Positions 13,826 to 24,661 of a stretch of 64,000 nucleotides of DNA are shown here, piece by piece. The stretch is taken from positions 1,024,001 to 1,088,000 of the forward strand of contig CAWJPJ010000006.1 of assembly GCA_963844715.1 (NCBI GenBank). The letters run 5' to 3'. This DNA is from an uncultured Phycisphaerales bacterium. GTDB lineage: Bacteria; Planctomycetota; Phycisphaerae; Tepidisphaerales; Tepidisphaeraceae. Below the pieces are notes generated by a model that made no database searches, was not told where the DNA came from, and was given only the letters and a program-made list of their open reading frames with translations. The position numbers and the translations under genes are program-made. How positions within the stretch are numbered: position 1 is the first letter of the stretch; the number at the start of each line of letters is the position of its first letter.

Positions 13826-13933
13826 AAAAATTTTGGCTTCTTTTCATGCCGACCGCACGATTCCGTGAAAAACGCCACTGACGAGCGCCAGAGGCGTATC
13901 GCATTGCGCGATGCCCGTTTATATTGGACCCCC

Positions 13934-16796
13934 ATGGGATACAACTTCACCGCCATTGAGAAGAAATGGCAGCAATATTGGCTCAAAAACCGCTCCTTCC
14001 GGGCCTTGGACCCCCAGGAGGCGGGCGCCAAACCCAAGGCTTACGTGCTGGACATGTTCCCCTATCCCAGCGGCGCGGGCCTGCATGTCGGGCACCCCGA
14101 GGGATACACCGCCACCGACATCATGTCCCGCTATCTCCGCATGCGCGGCTTCAACGTCCTCCATCCCATGGGTTGGGACGCCTTCGGCCTGCCCGCCGAG
14201 CAATACGCCATCAAGCAAAACGTCCACCCGCGCGTCACCACCGAGCAAAACATCGATAACTTCCGCCGCCAGATCCAGATGCTCGGCCTCTCTTACGACT
14301 GGGACCGCGAGATCGACACCACCGACCCGATGTACTACCGCTGGACCCAGTGGATCTTCCTCCAGCTCTTCAACAGCTATTTCGACCCCCAGGATCAAAA
14401 GGCACGGCCCATCAGCGCTCTGATCGACGAACTGCAAAGCGAGCGCTACGTCGTCGCCCCGGACGGATCGATCCGCTTTAATCCTGTCCATGAAGCCACC
14501 GAGGCCATCAGTTGGGAGTCCCACGTCGAGCGCACCTGGAAGGAACTGAGCGAGGACGACCGCCGCGATATTCTCGACGGCCAGCGCCTCGCCTACATGG
14601 ATGAAATTCCCGTCAACTGGTGCCCCGCCCTCGGGACCGTCCTGGCCAACGAGGAAGTCATCGACGGCAAAAGCGAAGTCGGCGGGTTCCCCGTGATCAA
14701 GCAGCCCATGCGCCAATGGATGCTTCGCATCACCGCCTATGCCGACCGGCTCCTGGACGATCTCGACGACTTGGATTGGCCCGAAAGTTTGAAGGAGATG
14801 CAGCGCAACTGGATCGGCAAAAGCGTCGGCGCCGAAATCGACTTCGACATTGAGGGGGATGACGAAGAATCAATCACCGTCTTCACGACTCGCCCCGATA
14901 CTTTATATGGCGCGACGTATATGGTCCTTTCCCCCGAACACCCGCTGGTGGAAAAACTGACCACGCCGGAGCATCGCGATGACGTGAAGAAATATCAGGA
15001 GTCCGTCGCCACCAAAAGCGAGCGCGACCGGATGGCCGATGCCAAGGACAAAACCGGCGTCTTCACCGGCGCTTTTGCGATCAATCCGATCAACGACGAG
15101 TTGATCCCGATTTGGATCGCGGATTACGTTCTGATGGGTTACGGCACCGGCGCGATCATGGCGGTTCCCGCCCACGACCAGCGCGATTTCGATTTCGCGA
15201 CTAAATTTCATCTGCCGATTCGCACGGTTGTCAGGCCCGCCAAAGGCGAAGCGCCCGCCGATCGCGCCTTCGAAGGGGATGGATTCGCAGTCAATTCCCC
15301 CGTCATCGAAGGTTTGCCGACCGCGCTGGCGAAGGAAGAGATTACCAAAGTCGTGGACGCCGAGGGATTCGGGCAGGCCTCGGTGAAATATAAACTCCGC
15401 GATTGGCTCTTCAGCCGGCAGCGCTATTGGGGCGAGCCGTTCCCCATCATTCTCGACGCCCAGGGGAACGCCTGGGCCGTCCCAGAGGATCAGTTGCCCA
15501 TTACTCTGCCCGAACTGGAGGATTTTAAACCCACCGGCACCCCCGAGCCGCCGCTATCCAAGGCCAGGGACTGGGTCCGCGTAAATCTCGACGGCCAACC
15601 CGCCGTACGCGAAACCAACACCATGCCCCAATGGGCCGGAAGTTGCTGGTACTACCTCCGCTATATCGATCCGCACAACACCGAACAGCTTCGTCGATCC
15701 GGAAAAGGAAAAATACTGGATGCCCGTCGATCTCTACGTCGGCGGCGTCGAACATGCCGTCCTGCATCTCCTCTATTCGCGCTTCTGGCACAAGGTCTTG
15801 TTCGACCTCGGCCACGTCTCAACCGCCGAGCCCTTCAAAAAACTGATCAATCAAGGCCTCATCCTCGGCGAAACCGAATTCCACGTCTTTCACGACGAGT
15901 CCGGAAAACCCGTCAGCGTCTCGGAGCTGCGCGACATCGCCGAAGAAGCCGGCGCCGACGGCGTGAAAATGATCGGGACCCGAAAAGACACCGGCCAAAA
16001 GCTCCTCGGTCGGCGCATCGACGAAAGCGAAGTCGAAAAATCCGGCGACGGATATGTTTTGAAATCCGACCCCAAAATCCGCGTTGACGGCCGCAGTTTC
16101 AAAATGAGCAAGAGCCGCGGCAACGTCGTCAACCCCGACCAGATCGTCGGCGATTACGGCGCCGACACCTTCCGCCTCTATGAGATGTACATGGGCCCAC
16201 TTGAAGCCCAAAAGCCCTGGAACACCCGCGACATCGTCGGCATGTCGCGATTCCTGGCCGGAGTCTATCGAAATCTAGTCGGCGACGACGAAACCCAGAA
16301 AAAGGCCCAAATTACTTCCGAACCCATCCCCGACGCGCTCGATCGCCAATTGCATCGCACCATCAAAAAGGTCGGCGACGACATCGAAGCCCTGCGTTTC
16401 AACACGGCCATCGCCCAGCTCATCATCCTCAACAACGAGATGGGCAAGCTGAAAAGCGTCCCCCGCGACTTGGCCGAAAAGTTCACGCTGCTGCTCGCCC
16501 CCTTCGCGCCGCATTTGGCGGAAGAAATCTGGAGCCTCCTCGGTCACACCGAGAGCCTCACCCGCCACCCCTGGCCGACGTTTGATCCGGCCAAGCTCAC
16601 GGATTCGACCGTTGAACTGGCCGTACAAGTCAACGGCAAACTGCGCGGCACAGTCAGCGTCCCCGCCGACGCAGCCGAAGAAGCCGCGATCACCGCCGCC
16701 CGAGAAGTCCCCAACGTCAAACCCTGGCTCGAAGGCAAAACCGTCGTCAAAAGCTTGTACGTTCAAAAGAAACTCGTGAATTTCGTCGTAAAATAA
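13934..16796 (+). CDS. leuS: Leucine--tRNA ligase, one frameshift near 15690
   Basis: 'MFPYPSG', HIGH-type 'HVGH', 'FTTRPDT' editing domain, '[11 protein letters not shown]', 'KMSKS'. Confidence 0.97.
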
Positions 16797-17443: not shown

Positions 17444-18361
17444 ATGGCGGACAAGGCGTTCCTCGTTCAAAAATTCGCCAAGATTCCACTTGGATCGATT
17501 CACGTCGTCGGCTACAGCGTCGCCGGCGAAGAGACCCTCGTCCAAGTCCCCGAGCTCAACGTCTGCTTCGACATCGGCCGCTGTCCCCACTTCGCTCTCA
17601 CCAGCGATATCGTCTGCATCTCACACGGCCACATGGATCACATCGCCGGCTTGCCCTATTACCTCTCCCAAAGATCGTTCCAGGGAATGAAAACCGGTAC
17701 CGTCCTCTTGCCGCGCGAACTCGCCCGCCCCGTAGAGAATCTTTTGAAATGCTGGCGCGACGTCGAACGCCAGGCCACCCCCTACGACATCGTCGGCATG
17801 TCCCCCGGCGACATCCACCAGGTCCGCAAGGATTTTCTCATCCGCTGCTTCGCCACCCACCACGGCTCCGCCAGCCTCGGCTATTCCCTCGTCAGCGTCC
17901 GCGAAAAACTCAAACCCGAGTACATGGGCACTCCCGGCCAGGAACTGGCCGCCCTGCGCAAGAAAGGCGTCGAAATCCAATACCGCGTCGAAGTCCCCCT
18001 CGTCGCATTTCTCGGCGACACCACCATGGGCGCCGTCTTCGATCATCCCGACGTCCAGACCGCCGAGGTGCTCATCACCGAATGCACCTTCTTCGAACCC
18101 GAGCACAAAGCCAAAGCCAAAGTCGGCCGCCACCTTCACGTCGACCAGTTCGTGAACCTCATCGCCAACCTGAAGAACAAGGAGATCGTTCTCACCCACG
18201 TCTCCCGCCGCACCAGCGTCCGCCGCGCCCGAGGAATCCTCCGAAAAGCCCTCGGCAACGAGCGAATGAAGAACATCCATTTCCTGATGGATTTCGAGGG
18301 ATCGACGGATGCGGGGGATATTGATGCCCTGGTCCCGCCGTCGACGGGCGATGCGACATAG
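17444..18361 (+). CDS. MBL-fold hydrolase, tRNase Z-like
   Basis: 'SHGHMDH', exosite-like 'EKLKPEY', 'FLGDT', 'ITECTF', 'LTHVSRR'. Confidence 0.8.
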   Translation: MADKAFLVQKFAKIPLGSIHVVGYSVAGEETLVQVPELNVCFDIGRCPHFALTSDIVCISHGHMDHIAGLPYYLSQRSFQGMKTGTVLLPRELARPVENLLKCWRDVERQATPYDIVGMSPGDIHQVRKDFLIRCFATHHGSASLGYSLVSVREKLKPEYMGTPGQELAALRKKGVEIQYRVEVPLVAFLGDTTMGAVFDHPDVQTAEVLITECTFFEPEHKAKAKVGRHLHVDQFVNLIANLKNKEIVLTHVSRRTSVRRARGILRKALGNERMKNIHFLMDFEGSTDAGDIDALVPPSTGDAT

Positions 18362-18478
18362 CGAAACCCGAAACCAGAATCAAGTCAGAATGCTCGAATC
18401 CCGAATGATACCAATTCGGTCATTCGGGCTTTCAGGCCTTCGGATTTGATTCGGAATTCTGGTTTCGGATTTCGGGTT
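18362..18478. repeat. Imperfect palindromic intergenic repeat with ~7-bp periodicity
   Basis: CGAAACCCGAAACCAGAAT ... ATTCTGGTTTCGGATTTCG between convergent genes. Confidence 0.6.
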
Positions 18479-18488
18479 TAGCCCGAGA

Positions 18489-19916
18489 TCACGCCGCTTC
18501 CAGCAGAAGCCCGCGTTTCTCGCCCCACTTGATCTTCCGGTACGCCTGCACCGAAACCGCCTGACTGTGCAGCAGCGGCTGCAACTGCTCCGCCGATAGA
18601 TCGGAGTAATCCACCAGCAAGCGCACGCTCGGAATCGCCTGGGCGTCGATCGCCAGTTGCGGCATCGCCATCCGGATCAGTTCGCAATTCTCATTCATCC
18701 AGCGAAGCGCCAGCCCGATCGGGCGAAGCTGGCTCAATCCTCGCCCCGCCACGGCCACGAGAATCAGCCGATGATCCCTCCCCACTGCCAGCACCGCCTG
18801 CGGGCACATCGGGGGTTTCAGCGGGCATTGCACCCACTCCCCGGCCGCTCCGCCGCGATTCACGATCGCTTCCAGAACCGATTCCTCCCCATCGTCGGGT
18901 AGATCGACAACTTCCTCAGCCGGATTCATCGCGGGCATGGGCATCACCTTTCTCGCTATCGTCGGCGGCGCTACAGGCTCAATCTTCATCGCCGGCGCTG
19001 CCGCCTGCGGGCGTTTAGGCGACACTTCCGTGCCCGCCGCAACACCGGACCCAGCGCGCGAAATGAAATCCGCGATCACGTGCCATTGCGGTCCGGCCGC
19101 GCCCTGCGGCTTATCTCGCCCTGCCCGGCAATGCAAAATCGGATGTTCCAGAATCCCCGCCTTCTCGCCGCCCGTTCGCACCGGCGACTGCGCCGCAATC
19201 CTGCAGCCCAGAAACTGCCCGGCCACCGCGTCAAGCTTGTGGAACACGGCGTCCGCTTCCGCGTCGTCGTGCGAATCCAGCACGGCCGCCGATATTTTCG
19301 GCTTGCCGATTTCCGCCAGGCCCTTCAGCGCCCGATAGGCCGCCACCACACCCTCGTGATCCGCCGTCGTCAGCAGAATCCACTGCGACGAAGCCCGCAA
19401 AAGCTCCCGAGCCTCCGGCGTGCGCGGATTGCCGATCGAAATCAGCCATCGATCCACGTCAAAGCTCATCTCCGCCAGTGTCTCGCTCATCCGCCGGGCG
19501 TCCAATTCGTCCGCGATCGGCGCGGCCGATTCCGTATGAATCGCGTCGCCCGACTCCGGCTCAAACCCCGTGATCGCAAATTCGTTTCCATCGATTTCAA
19601 TCAGCCCTACCCGCCCGCGCTTTCCAGCGACGTGACGGGCATATTGCCGAATCCGCTGCGGCGCATCAGAAAGATGTGAAGCCAGAATAATCGAGATTTC
19701 CGCCCCGCCTGCCGCCCCCTCGCCCCCCTCTTCGCCGCGCACCGCCGCCATTTCTTCCGGAGTCAGATCAACGCTTGCATGGGCCTTCGCCGCCGCCGGC
19801 TTCGCCGCCGCGCCCGGTGGCACGCGCGAAGGCCGAGCCCCCGGCCCGCCCGGCCGCTGTCGAATCTCGCTGAGGAAAAGGTGGCTGATCTCGCTGAGCG
19901 TCTGTTTGGAGTCCAT
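18489..19916 (-). CDS. Hypothetical protein with degenerate FlhG/MinD-like central domain
   Basis: 'RVGLIEID', 'ILLTTADHEGVVAAYRALK', 'EADAVFHKLDAVAGQFLG' resemble FlhG/FleN; no KGGxGK Walker A seen; RBS AGGA upstream. Confidence 0.6.
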   Translation of the reverse strand: MDSKQTLSEISHLFLSEIRQRPGGPGARPSRVPPGAAAKPAAAKAHASVDLTPEEMAAVRGEEGGEGAAGGAEISIILASHLSDAPQRIRQYARHVAGKRGRVGLIEIDGNEFAITGFEPESGDAIHTESAAPIADELDARRMSETLAEMSFDVDRWLISIGNPRTPEARELLRASSQWILLTTADHEGVVAAYRALKGLAEIGKPKISAAVLDSHDDAEADAVFHKLDAVAGQFLGCRIAAQSPVRTGGEKAGILEHPILHCRAGRDKPQGAAGPQWHVIADFISRAGSGVAAGTEVSPKRPQAAAPAMKIEPVAPPTIARKVMPMPAMNPAEEVVDLPDDGEESVLEAIVNRGGAAGEWVQCPLKPPMCPQAVLAVGRDHRLILVAVAGRGLSQLRPIGLALRWMNENCELIRMAMPQLAIDAQAIPSVRLLVDYSDLSAEQLQPLLHSQAVSVQAYRKIKWGEKRGLLLEAA

Positions 19917-19948
19917 GTTGTCCTTTCCTCGGCTCCGCCGGGGTGGTG

Positions 19949-21454
19949 TCAATCGACTTCGATCACGTTGTTCAGTTCTCCGAACTGATTGGTTTCAACG
20001 TAATTGTTGTGCGGGTCCGTCATCCACTTCCCGTCCACCACGAACCGGTAGCGATATCGCCCCGGCCGCAGCGGCAGGCACATCCAGAATTCGCCAGGCT
20101 GCCCTCGATTGATCATCGGCGTCGACATCAGAGACCAATTGTTAAAGTCCCCCGCGATCAAAACCTTCTTCGCGTCGCTGAAGCGGGCCGCGAAGATCAC
20201 TTCTCCGCCCACCTGCTTCACGCCGTAGAATTCCGCGATCTTCTGCGCCGTGGTCTTCATGGCCGGCGCAGGTTCCAGGGCTTCGGATGGCTCCGCCGCC
20301 TCCGACTCCTCTGGCTCCCGCACCGTCACCTCCACAATTTCCTCCGCAACCTCCACCTGCAAATCCTTGTCCTCCTGCATCACCAGAACGCCCATCGCCG
20401 AAGCGGAGCTTTCCACTTCCAGCGACGCTTGTGCCTGCGCCGGCGCCGGCTTCTCTTGCATCAAAGACGATCGATCAAATACCGGCTGGCTGAAAATCGG
20501 CGCGGGAGGCGAAAATGCGAATGGCGCCGAAGTCGGCACCGCCGCCGGAGCCGCCGCGGATGCCGCGCGTCATCGCCGCACTCTTCCCAAACTGCAAATT
20601 CGTAAGCTGCGCAAGCTGCTTCGCTCGCTGCACGAGTTCCGCCGGACGGGAGAGCGTTTCGCTGCTCGTCGGCTCCACTCTCCTCGGGCCGATGGCCCAT
20701 CAGCTCGCGCGCCAGGTTCAGGAAATCCTTGTAACCCCGGCTTCCCGGATCGTATTCCGTGATCGGCTGCCCGAAACTGGCCGCTTCCTTCAGCTTGGTG
20801 TTGAAGTTGACCGTGCTCTCCATCAGATATTCGCGGAATTTATTCCGCAGCTCCGACAGAACTTCGCGGGCCAGCTTGGTGCGCGTGTCGTAAAGCGTCG
20901 GCAGCACGCGGATCAAAATATCCTTGCCGCATTTCTCCCGCATGATCTCCAGCGTCTGCATCATCTTCGCCAGACCATGCAGGCTGAAATACCCCGTCTC
21001 CACCGGAACGATCACTTCGTCGCAAGCCCGCAGCGCGTTAAAGGTAATGAGCCCCACGCTCGGCGGGCAGTCGATGATGCACCACTGGTACGTCGGCGCC
21101 GCATGCCGCGAGCGCATTCTTCAGCCGATCCTCGCGACCCGGCCGCCCGGCGAACATCTGCTCGAACGCCGCCAGCTTGATATTCGCCGGCGAAAGATCG
21201 AAATCGCTGGCGATCTGCCAGACGGTGTCGACCAGACGAATCGGTGTCCCGTCGCGCTCTTCGATCAGCGCATCGAGAATGGTTCGTTCAATCTGTTCCT
21301 CGGGAACCGCCAGGCCCACGGCGCAGTGCCCCTGCGGATCCATGTCGACCAGCAAGGTCTTCTGACCCAGCCGTGCCAGGCAGGCCGCCAGGTTAATGCT
21401 CGTGGTGGTTTTCCCGCAGCCGCCCTTCTGGTTGATGATGGCGATGGTGCGCAT
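19949..21454 (-). CDS. ParA/Soj family ATPase fused to a C-terminal CBM48/AMPK1_CBM glycogen-binding domain, frameshifted
   Basis: 'NQKGGCGKTT', 'DMDPQG', 'IIDCPPS', 'LPTLYD.RT'; C-terminal 'IAGDFNNW...GRYRYRFVVDGKWMTDP'. Confidence 0.85.
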
Positions 21455-21574
21455 TGAGACGCCTTCCTTGGACGTGTGGCTCGCGCTTGTATGGCAGAGC
21501 CGATCCTTCGACCCTTGAGTTCCAGAATGCCCTCATCTTCTGCGCCGTCGCGCAAGAGACCGCATCCAACCGAA

Positions 21575-21603
21575 TTATCGGGAGGTGAGCTTGGAGAACT
21601 TTA
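21575..21603 (-). promoter_or_regulatory. sigma28 (FliA)-like promoter
   Basis: Minus strand TAAAG-N16-CCCGATAA; a second TCCGATAA about 30 bp upstream. Confidence 0.65.
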
Positions 21604-21728
21604 CTTTTATCGGACAACGTCAATCAGACCCGATTCGCTTCCCCAGCAAGCGAAAAAATGACCCCCTTTGTATTTCCCATCCATGCCCTCCGTGAAATCC
21701 GCGGTTTATTCGCATACGATTGGCCACC

Positions 21729-24661
21729 ATGAAACCAGGCGATCGAATCGATGGGTTTGTTGTTAATAGAGTTACGACGCTCCCCAACCTCCGCTCCGTG
21801 GCGTACGAACTCAAACACCAGGCCAGCGGCGCCCGCATTCTGCACCTCCATAACCAGGACCCCGAAAACCTGTTCTCGGTCTCCTTCCCCACCCCCCCGC
21901 CGGATGACACCGGCGTTCCCCACATCCTCGAGCACAGCGTCCTGGCCGGCTCAGCAAAGTATCGCGTGAAGGACCCCTTCTTCGAGATGGTCAAGTCCAG
22001 CATGGCCACTTTCATCAATGCCATGACCGGCAGCGACTACACCGTCTATCCCGTTGCTAGCAATGTAAAGCAGGACTTCTTCAACCTCGCCGAGGTCTAC
22101 TGGGATGCCGTTTTCTATCCCCTTCTGACCGAGCAGACGTTCCAGCGCGAAGGCCACCACCTTGAGATCACCACCCGCTGGCGAATTGATCATCAAGGGC
22201 ATCGTCTATAACGAAATGAAGGGCGCCAAATCCAGTCCTGAAGCGCACGTCTGGGACCTGATCGAAAAAAATCTCTGGCCCGACACCCCCTACGGCAAAG
22301 ACGCCGGCGGCGACCCCGATCACATCCCCGAACTCACCTGGCAAGGCCTGTGCAATTTCCATCGAACCTTCTACCATCCCAGCAACGCTTATATCTTCCT
22401 TTACGGCGATATCCCCACCGCCGAGCATCTCAAATTCCTCTCCGGCCGCCTGGCGCAGTTTGCCGATCAGGATATCGGCGTCGATCTGTCCCCCCAACCC
22501 CGGTGGAAGACCCCGCGCACCGTCTCGGCCGGTTATCCCGTCGCGCCCACCGACGCAACCGAGGGCAAGACCTATATTGTTCACAACTGGCTCGTTGGCG
22601 ATAGCACGAACCCGGCCGAGCTATTCGCCCTCAGCGCCCTGGAGCGCATTCTCCTCGGCAACCAAGCCGCACCCCTCCGTAAAGCGATCATCGACTCCAA
22701 ACTCGGCCAGGACCTCACCCACAGCAGCGCAAACGTCAACGGCCCCGACGCTTCATTCCATATCGGCATCAAGGGAACCGAAACCAACCGCGCCGGCGAT
22801 TTTGAACAGCTAGTCATGAACACCCTGCGCAAGATCGCCGATGAAGGCGTTTCCTCCGACCGTTTCGACGCCGCCATCCAGCAATTACAGTATCGCTATC
22901 TCGAGATCACCCCCTCCTATCCCCTGCATCTGATGGGCGGCGCCGTTCGCCATGTGGCAGCACAGCGCCGACCCCCTGGAGTTGTTCCGCGCCGAGGAGC
23001 ATATCGCCAATCTCAAGCGATCCTTCGCCGCCGATCCCGACGCGTTCGGAAAAATAATCCGTGAGCGATTGCTGGATAATCCGCACCGCCTCACCGTGAT
23101 CGCCGCGCCCGACCGCGACATTCAGGCCAAAAAAGACGCCGAATTCGCCCGCAAGATGAAAGAGCAAAAGGACTCCCTCTCCCCCGCTCAAATCGAGGAC
23201 ATCACACGCAATCAAACCGAACTTGAGGCGATTCTCAACGCTCCCAATTCCCCCGAGGCCATCGCCTCCCTCCCCCAGCTTCGCGTCAGCGACCTCCCGC
23301 GCAAGCCCAAGCATATCCCCACAACCGTTGAGACGTTGTCCGGCGGCGCGATCCTCCTGAACAACGACGTCTTCGCCAACGGCGTCAATTACCTCCTCGT
23401 CACTCTCGATCTGGGTGGCCTGCATCCCGACCTCGTTCCTTATCTCTCCCTCTATTCCGACGCCGTGCAAAAAATGGGCGCGGCCGGCCAGAATTTCGTA
23501 CAAATCGCCGAGCGCATCGCCGCCCACACCGGCGGCGTCGCCTTCACCCCGGCATTCCACGGCCGCGTCGACGACGCCAATCGCGTCATGCAATCCGGAA
23601 CCTTCAGCATCAAATTCCTCGACGACCACGCCGACGCGGCCCTGAGCGTCCTCGCGGATCTCATGCTCTCCCTCGACCCAACCGATGTTCCGCGCCTAAA
23701 AGACATCCTCCTCCAGGCCCGCGCCGCCCAACGCATGCGCCCCAACACGACGGCATGGGACTCGCCCTCCGCCACGCCGCGTCCCGTTTCAACACCGAAG
23801 CCCAATTAAACGAAATGCACGGCGGCCTCCCCCTCATCCGCCTCTATGAAAAAATCGCCGAAGGACCCACCGATGAAGTGATCGACAAACTCTCGCCGCC
23901 TGCGCGACTATCTCTTGTCCGCCCCACACATCACCGCCAGTTTCACCGGGAGCGGCAAAGTCCTGGATCTCGTCCGCCGGCGAATCACCGGGTGGTCCAA
24001 AGCGAAGCTGACAAAATCCCAGGCCAGGCAATCATATGCTACTTTTTTTGAGTATCCCCCAATACGCAGCGGCCTGGCCGCACCCATGAACGTCGCCTAT
24101 TGCACCAGCGTCATGCCCGCCCCGCATGTTTCTAATCCAGACGCCCCGCTGCTGGCCGTCGCCTCAAGATTGCTCAGCCTCAACTACGTCCTCGAAGAAG
24201 TCCGCTTCAAAGGCACGGCCTACGGCGGAGGCTGCGGCTACAACGGCTCCGGCCAACTCTTCTCCTTCCATTCCTACCGCGACCCCTGGATCAATCGCAC
24301 CCTCGACGTCTACGCCGTCTCCCTACAGCACGTCCGCGAGACCAACTGGACGCAAGGCGACGTCGACCGCTCCATCATCGGCACCGCCAAGGAAGGCGAA
24401 AAACCCATCCGCCCCCCCCAGGCCAGCGCCATCGCTCTCCTACGTCATCTCACCGGCGACACCCCCGCACTCCGAGAAACCCGCCACGCCGCGATCCTCT
24501 CGACGACTCTATCCGGCGCCAAACGCGTGCTCACCGAGCAATTCGAAGCCCACGCCAAAGAAGCTGCCGTCTGCGTCGTCTCCAGCCGCGAAAAACTCGA
24601 AGAGGCGAACGCCCAAAAACCGCAAAACGTCCTGGAAATCGAGGACATCCTCCCACAATGA
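21729..24661 (+). CDS. M16C family metallopeptidase (PreP/Cym1-like), multiple frameshifts
   Basis: Inverted zincin motif 'HILEH', 'FINAMT', 'GIVYNEMKG', 'YHPSNA', 'VRFKGTAYGG', 'SYRDP'. Confidence 0.92.

Follow-up and report, generated by a model that had tools for sequence, protein, structure and literature searches.

DNA, division sites, flagella, chemoreceptors and carboxysomes are positioned by ATPases of the ParA/MinD type, none of which, to our knowledge, is known to place a carbohydrate store. No paper was found on the positioning of glycogen granules by ParA/MinD ATPases, and only unrelated papers on ParA/MinD ATPases with a glycogen-binding domain, most subscription papers being out of reach in both searches; for CBM48 with ParA or Soj nothing relevant was found among the matches listed. 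Here we describe a two-gene locus residing in a 64,000-nucleotide stretch of the genome of an uncultured Phycisphaerales bacterium (the window, in contig CAWJPJ010000006.1), which encodes a Soj-like ParA fused to a CBM48 domain of the AMPK-beta type, and a partner made of two dead enzyme folds preceded by a putative ParA-binding peptide. We assign a probability of roughly 40% to the view that fusion and partner form an ATP-switched tether, which holds or places alpha-glucan granules.

The closest described system is found in a computational preprint by Li, Burroughs and Aravind (bioRxiv 10.64898/2026.10.19.760177), the one source retrieved by searching for AMPK1_CBM together with ParA, most subscription papers being again out of reach. 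The "CBM-containing system", or ConB5, is described there as a ParA fused to AMPK1_CBM; a second variant adds an inactive second ParA and an inactive restriction endonuclease (REase), and another one a membrane protein bearing an outer CBM. The preprint predicts carbohydrate-triggered immunity from how rapidly the CBM diverges. The ParA with a C-terminal AMPK1_CBM, the dead ParA-like domain and the dead REase domain of the window are all matched in the second variant. In the accessible text, however, the two dead domains are separate genes, whereas in the window they are fused in one protein; that text is silent on a ParB-type peptide, which the partner in the window has; and ConB5 is called sporadic, with a fast CBM, whereas in the class Phycisphaerae (the class, hereafter; f2, f3, f5, f13, f14 and f16 are families within it) the system is widespread, single-copy, and has a CBM as conserved as ParB. 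As far as the accessible text defines it, the pair in the window is the second variant of ConB5 with the dead domains fused. The system is not undescribed, since this layout already appears in the preprint, though with immunity as a competing function. New here are the ParB-type peptide, the rewiring of the pocket, the fusion of the two partner domains and an inheritance like that of housekeeping genes. The locus is organized as follows.

19949..21454, minus strand: ParA(Soj-like)-helix-linker-CBM48 fusion gene, about 500 residues, in four frame pieces, with frameshifts near 21110, 20685 and 20570
21404..21427, minus strand: Walker A motif of the deviant type, KGGCGKTT, with K10 and K15 unchanged in 59/59 rows
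20680..21108, minus strand: C-terminal half of the ATPase, with Walker B (DCPP); R191, R196 and K220 kept on the DNA face, Phe at the position of Soj R218
20568..20687, minus strand: conserved helix 3' of the ATPase, corresponding to residues 269-292 of the intact homologue P0002
20264..20567, minus strand: Pro/Ala/Glu-rich linker, of varying length, predicted disordered
19952..20263, minus strand: short helix and CBM48 of the AMPK-beta type; equivalents of W100, W133, G147 and N150 kept, K126 changed to Arg, L146 to Phe, T148 to Glu
18489..19916, minus strand: partner gene, 475 residues, including a peptide helix, a dead FlhG-like domain, a linker and a dead NucS-like domain
19872..19907, minus strand: residues 4-15 of the partner, a helix bearing LSEISHLFLS as family motif, putative counterpart of the ParB LG[RK]GL ParA-binding peptide
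19047..19709, minus strand: partner residues 70-290, FlhG/FleN-like fold without P-loop (4RZ2 match, Foldseek, profile)
18492..18890, minus strand: partner residues 343-475, NucS/REase-like fold without E-x-K (2VLD match)

In the assembly which includes the window (G000), the fusion gene is split into pieces 21454-21110, 21108-20680, 20687-20568 and 20524-19952, in frames -1, -2, -3 and -1, which match by tblastn, at 97, 98, 80 and 75% identity and with three frame changes, the intact homologue P0002 (494 residues). Pfam recognizes AAA_31 in pieces one and two (96.7 and 57.2 bits against a cut-off of 27); the last piece scores 64.5 bits with AMPK1_CBM (cut-off 26.8) and 26.8 bits with CBM_48 (cut-off 22.4). 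Among the longer homologues of the CBM piece, the best 120 were considered: in 115 of them AAA_31 and AMPK1_CBM reside in a single protein, and the other five are unrelated multi-CBM proteins. The notion that the pieces make one protein of about 500 residues once three indels are corrected is supported both by these homologues and by P0002, which spans all four pieces, and the alternative that ParA and CBM are separate genes was ruled out on the same grounds. The three single-base frameshifts are most likely assembly errors, because homologues are fused and the assembly is indel-prone. The neighbouring leuS and presequence-protease-like M16 peptidase genes (13865-16796 and 21720-24661 of the window, respectively) are likewise split by frameshifts, and a frame change was found in 5 of the 9 housekeeping queries with a G000 orthologue, a tenth query having no match. 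The ParA part has one frame change, plus an overlap, also in a genome of the same genus (G001). No sigma-70 promoter was found by scanning the 18300-21800 region.

The ATPase is complete, as originally predicted: K10, K15, D37, D39 and D128 are invariant in all the 59 aligned rows, and the best solved relative is the Myxococcus xanthus ParA 8RAY (E 2e-54). The model of P0002 (mean predicted local distance difference test, pLDDT, 80.8) features two folded domains and a disordered linker between them (residues 293-388, pLDDT <50). Linkers vary in length among the fusion relatives, which are 380-580 residues long, and the Pro/Ala/Glu-rich character initially ascribed to this region was confirmed. 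The AMPK-beta-type assignment of the C-terminal domain was equally correct. The GDFNNW and YRFVVDGKW..DP motifs are both present, both Pfam profiles score above cut-off, and the sugar-stacking residues are kept. W433, R463, W470, G485 and N488 (P0002 numbering), invariant in 59/59 rows, align to AMPK-beta W100, K126, W133, G147 and N150. In AMPK-beta, glycogen binding is abolished by the changes W100G and K126Q, and reduced by W133L and G147R (PMC6274970). The domain matches solved AMPK-beta structures at E 1e-12, and glycogen- and starch-binding modules are its closest solved matches. The sugar site of the fusion looks intact, and is predicted from sequence to bind glycogen. The G000 genome also encodes a stand-alone protein of about 110 residues corresponding to one AMPK-type CBM48 (G000:C6:834695-835027, minus strand), and similar frames of 90-190 residues occur in many genomes of the class. 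No CBM48 enzyme of the GlgB/GlgX type was found in G000.

The Soj-like sequence and fold, and the high conservation of the ATPase, are compatible with the hypothesis that the fusion is the ParA which segregates the chromosome, working with an unlinked ParB. Vicinity to parB is a weak test of this role. The sole strong ParB of G000 is unlinked, on contig C7 (C7:309097-309366), and no parB is found near the fusion, as initially noted; yet a second Soj-like ParA (ParA2; C7:52358-53250, minus strand, frameshifted here) is unlinked from ParB too, and parB lacks an adjacent parA in 29 of the 30 loci examined, the exception being G026. More informative is the pocket accommodating the ParB arginine, formed in M. 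xanthus ParA by Y81, E82, D110 and E117 (PMC12462528). ParA2 keeps Y81 in 27/27 copies, D110 in 25/27, E117 in 26/27, along with R218 in 27/27. In contrast, neither D110 nor E117 is found in any of the 16 same-family copies of the fusion. In addition, at the threshold used, 50 of the 151 genomes of the class yielded no fusion, among them all those of f2 (0/21). Because the second ParA keeps the ParB-binding pocket, a chromosomal identity of the fusion is largely rejected on the pocket residues, and is very improbable. The orphan status attributed to the ATPase is thus upheld. No convincing canonical parS site was found in G000, allowing up to 2 mismatches from the consensus.

The partner gene starts at the ATG at 19916, 32 bp past the fusion stop, and is preceded by a strong ribosome-binding site. 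No Pfam family is recognized in the protein at E<=0.1, but a profile of 133 partner relatives matches FlhG (E 2e-7) and FleN. In the model (mean pLDDT 83.3), residues 70-290 match FlhG 4RZ2 with Z 12.5 and root-mean-square deviation (rmsd) 4.2 over 180 aligned residues (Foldseek E 5e-8), and residues 343-462 match NucS 2VLD with a middling score (Z 8.5, rmsd 3.0, 103 aligned); a stand-alone relative of the latter domain matches NucS by sequence (E 2e-6). The FlhG-like domain has no Walker A at the first strand, and aliphatic residues replace the catalytic D...E-x-K motif of NucS in the partner of the window as in the family consensus. Profile, fold and sequence therefore confirm that a co-oriented, FlhG-like gene without P-loop lies 32 bp downstream; the C-terminal NucS-like domain had been overlooked. 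The Arg-rich N-terminal peptide also proposed at the outset is modestly supported, R19 and R31 being conserved in at least 90% of the 133 rows, while the Arg-rich stretch located before 19916 is probably untranslated. In the ESM Atlas the partner falls among unnamed Planctomycetota clusters only, the nearest named ones being MinD/ParA at 0.82-0.83. In loci outside the class, separate genes often encode the two domains, and some of the FlhG-like ones have a remnant P-loop. A true flhG resides elsewhere, in a flhA-flhF-flhG-fliA cluster.

Partners vary in composition. Those at L172:5077-5856 and L174:5250-5561 keep the peptide and drop the MinD-like domain, the peptide being joined to a REase-like fold or to a small unknown domain; the L112 and L114 partners lack the REase-like domain and retain the MinD-like one. 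Near the N-terminus of the fused partner (residues 53-59) lies a short L[ST]xxE helix, which is located at the C-terminus in separate REase-like genes (the third genes of L177, L178, L183 and L184), and also in the L077 partner, and is possibly a mobile docking motif. In one run labelled as Nitrospirae (L178:3415-6410), a MerR-type regulator, a CBM-less ParA, a peptide plus MinD-like gene and a REase-like gene follow each other.

The N-terminal helix of the partner is, on sequence grounds, a putative ParA-binding peptide of the ParB type. An N-terminal LGRGL motif is present in all the 30 ParB proteins examined, and motifs of this type bind the ParA dimer interface and activate the ATPase through the central Arg (PMC12462528). 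No paper was found by searching for LGRGL together with ParB and ParA, with most subscription papers out of reach. Of 19 loci outside the class, 5 have the full LG[RK]GL ahead of the partner helix, and 8 others a shortened version of it; where the activating Arg is expected, 97 of the 133 partner rows have R or K. When a dimer of ParA (P0002 residues 1-292) with ATP and Mg was modelled with partner residues 1-62, the complex scored 0.38, a weak support, against 0.00 for the best of three controls. The mark used for such scores was reached by 116/157 solved complexes and by 2/215 mismatched pairs, but among those reaching it, scores <=0.60 were given by only 18 of the 157 solved complexes, and by both mismatches. 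At least 32% of the contacts were common to the runs, with a partner pLDDT of at least 49. The score may reflect resemblance to solved ParA-ParB peptide complexes.

In the model which we favour, ATP would dimerise ParA and bring two CBM48s side by side, increasing their avidity for glycogen. The dimer would bind the nucleoid weakly via R191, R196 and K220, and docking of the partner peptide at the dimer interface would trigger hydrolysis and release. The partner could be held at a landmark by either dead fold, the NucS one on DNA, or the FlhG one at the pole or at the flagellar base. As a result, granules might be kept apart from the nucleoid, spread along it, or shared out with it. Of the glycogen-granule positioning system originally proposed, the fusion, the sugar site, the orphan ATPase, the partner and a host pathway are retained, and glycogen as the cargo is an inference; the expected co-occurrence with glg genes is negative by neighbourhood and by family.

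The pathway itself is present in G000, which carries a eukaryote-type (GT3) glycogen synthase (G000:C7:151994-153856), two phosphorylases and a GH57 branching-enzyme-like gene. GT3 synthase is found in 77/151 genomes of the class. GlgC was above cut-off in none of five genomes, G000 among them. The PF08323 match of G000 was rejected as GlgA, and left out of the counts, because the enzyme is of the GT4 type and scores below the glgA cut-offs; PF08323 matches are weak in most genomes of the class. In the single-contig genome G030, a stretch of less than 17 kb (G030:C1:1640703-1657366) contains GT3 synthase, ParA2 and the fusion, with the synthase about 13 kb from the fusion; this is seen in one genome.

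Several observations argue against a glycogen tether. No glycogen synthase, phosphorylase or branching enzyme was found by Pfam among 80 proteins around 40-odd loci (one GH15 and two GalT-like genes are included in the set), and no glycogen enzyme by NCBIfam among 55 neighbours. The presence of the system does not track GT3 synthase or phosphorylase across 150 genomes of the class: f13 has the system in 16/16 genomes and GT3 synthase in 0/16, f5 has GT3 in 20/21 and the system in 5/21, f2 phosphorylase in 21/21 and the system in 0/21, f3 the system in 12/12 and a phosphorylase of this type in 1/12. The CBM is missing in some members of the system (L168, L174, L178, L180, G131 and G145). The two non-planctomycete genomes among these have strong GlgA matches, which implies, judging from the sequences, that the core module can work without CBM. 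In five genomes featuring a ParA match without CBM motif, GT3 is absent, and GT5 matches were found in all, strong in two. The partner matches its profile downstream of the fusion in only 30/80 wider loci, crude gene calls being used, and appears therefore optional. The peptide of the window has itself Gln at the position of the activating Arg. Eventually, DNA binding is predicted with uncertainty. Residues of the DNA face are R189 and R218 in Bacillus subtilis Soj (PMC3778016), and K199, K227, K230 and K247 in Helicobacter pylori ParA (PMC11229316). The fusion is basic at the positions of R189, K199 and K230 and has Gly at that of K247, but the position of Soj R218 and H. pylori K227 is Phe in 26/28 copies of the class, and this makes binding uncertain. 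A genomics paper on the class, in its accessible text, mentions glycogen solely as a predicted substrate (PMC11266412).

The same data may be read by taking glycogen as input rather than cargo. According to this hypothesis, glycogen tunes the ATPase, and the partner signals to the flagellar or polarity machinery, thus coupling the carbon store to motility or the cell cycle. In eukaryotes a module of the same type, the AMPK-beta CBM, senses glycogen; the members without CBM agree with an input domain that is optional, and the closest fold of the partner is FlhG/FleN. In f5 the same 5 of 21 genomes (G028, G129, G143, G155 and G171) carry both the system and flhA, both are absent in f16 (0/3), and G145 lacks CBM and flhA alike. 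However, the f5 match may represent one loss event, and kin are not independent; flhA is found in 17/21 genomes of f2 and 4/4 of f14, all without the system, and in only 6/12 genomes of f3, which has the system in 12/12. In the scanned loci the pair is not bordered by a flagellar operon. We regard a sensor of this kind as unlikely.

The absence of ties to glycogen enzymes would also be explained if the CBM bound another glucan (maltodextrins, cyclic or exported glucan precursors), and the module positioned or regulated a polysaccharide synthesis or export complex in a BcsQ-like manner. A PseB-like UDP-sugar dehydratase upstream of the fusion in 4/20 loci, and the ConB5 variant with an outer-CBM membrane protein reported in the preprint, point in the same direction. 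Yet the pair has no synthase or export operon at its flanks, a membrane-CBM gene is absent here, and the closest solved matches of the CBM are those mentioned above; all this makes the proposal improbable. The dehydratase, a PseB-like UDP-GlcNAc enzyme, was found at L107, L109, L115 and L118.

The system is distributed as a two-gene module passed on vertically. Of the 151 genomes of the class, 101 carry the ParA subfamily, 100 of these in single copy, and in most families it is all-or-none; the CBM query matches 107/151 genomes, a few of the matches being small stand-alone CBMs. A strong partner match is present in 23 of 24 same-family genomes, and lies directly behind the fusion in 21 of the 23; of the two exceptions, one locus is cut by a contig end, and in the other the fusion is lacking within 1.5 kb. 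The unpublished genome G004 is among those counted, and the conclusions stand without it. Of 12 loci from other families of the class, 10 have a partner-like gene behind the fusion. The 16 same-family copies group together (support 97) in a quick, unrooted tree, used for grouping only. Identity, measured on 12 same-family plus up to 8 other genomes, is within the family 84.5% for the ParA of the fusion, 67.0% for the CBM, 75.6% for ParA2 and 63.9% for the ParB core, and 45.0% and 44.7% between families for CBM and ParB core, respectively. The partner diverges faster than the ATPase, with 47% and 56% identity within the family and about 20% between families. The identified neighbours are housekeeping genes, among which aspS, carB, lysA, fusA, clpX and truD. 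Judging from the labels of close homologues, the host of the window belongs to Tepidisphaeraceae, within the class. The fusion is also found in records labelled as Myxococcota, Desulfobacterales, Omnitrophota, Eisenbacteria, Auribacter and Acidobacteriota.

This picture bears directly on the immune function predicted in the preprint. An anti-phage sensor would detect phage glycans, cell-wall fragments or glycogen depletion through the CBM, ParA would multimerise to limit infection, and the dead nuclease fold may sense DNA. The layout is that of the second variant of ConB5, the REase-like fold is common in defence, and the faster evolution of the partner, as well as the scattered presence in other phyla, are consistent with such a role. 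Against it, the rapid CBM divergence is not seen in the class, where CBM and ParB core are equally conserved, within and between families, and sugar-stacking residues are invariant. Single copy and family-wide retention are unlike the patchy occurrence of defence genes. Neither protein of the system matched PADLOC, and PADLOC matches in the flanks (7 of 103 open reading frames, from 28 loci) are all partial and concern general domains (ABC, E1-like, phospholipase-D-like and MotB-like). Rates were measured within the class, and outside of it the preprint may be right. The evidence in the class leans against immunity, because of the single copy, the retention or loss by whole families, the conservation of the CBM at the level of ParB and the housekeeping neighbours, and we consider a phage sensor quite unlikely. 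The steady single-copy inheritance suggests that placement or tethering of glycogen is likelier than immunity.

Between the partner and a converging metallo-beta-lactamase-fold gene lies a long imperfect hairpin (window 18360-18488; -59.7 kcal/mol, z -6.2); it is a dispersed repeat, of which contig C6 alone has at least 15 related copies. The hairpin could work as a two-way terminator.

The locus sets granule placement or sensing against phage defence, with opposed predictions. A wider claim, on which we are doubtful, is that the pair is the first bacterial machine for the active placing and sharing of glycogen granules, in which a ParA would grip a polysaccharide by a built-in AMPK-type module, with a trigger-peptide partner and a rewired pocket; the machine would be fixed across most of the class, and the immune reading would be wrong there. 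Were a tether at work, these bacteria would inherit their glycogen actively, and a ParA could have a sugar polymer as its direct cargo or matrix. Were immunity the function, this would be an unusually stable, housekeeping-like defence gene.

The components of the system may be finally compared with their known counterparts. With chromosomal ParA/Soj proteins (8RAY, 1WCV, 6IUB) the fusion shares the fold, about 40% identity, all the catalytic motifs and three basic residues of the DNA face; it differs in the C-terminal CBM48 extension, Phe at the R218 position and the altered ParB-arginine pocket. With the CBM48 of the AMPK beta-subunit (4Y0G, 1Z0N) it shares a score above the profile cut-off, both stacking tryptophans, G147 and N150, but K126 is conservatively replaced by Arg, L146 by Phe and T148 by Glu, and the module sits on a bacterial ATPase. 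The partner has the fold of FlhG/FleN (4RZ2, 8P53), but no P-loop and a location outside the flagellar operon, and its C-terminal domain the fold of NucS (2VLD), with the E-x-K motif gone. As in the McdA-McdB, PomZ-PomX/Y and ParC-ParP pairs, an orphan ParA-type ATPase is accompanied by a co-transcribed partner with an N-terminal basic/hydrophobic peptide. In contrast to pairs of the McdAB type, no cargo genes adjoin the fusion, and the partner consists of two dead enzyme folds. The geometry of McdAB is inverted, since in the window the cargo-type module resides on the ATPase, and not on the partner.

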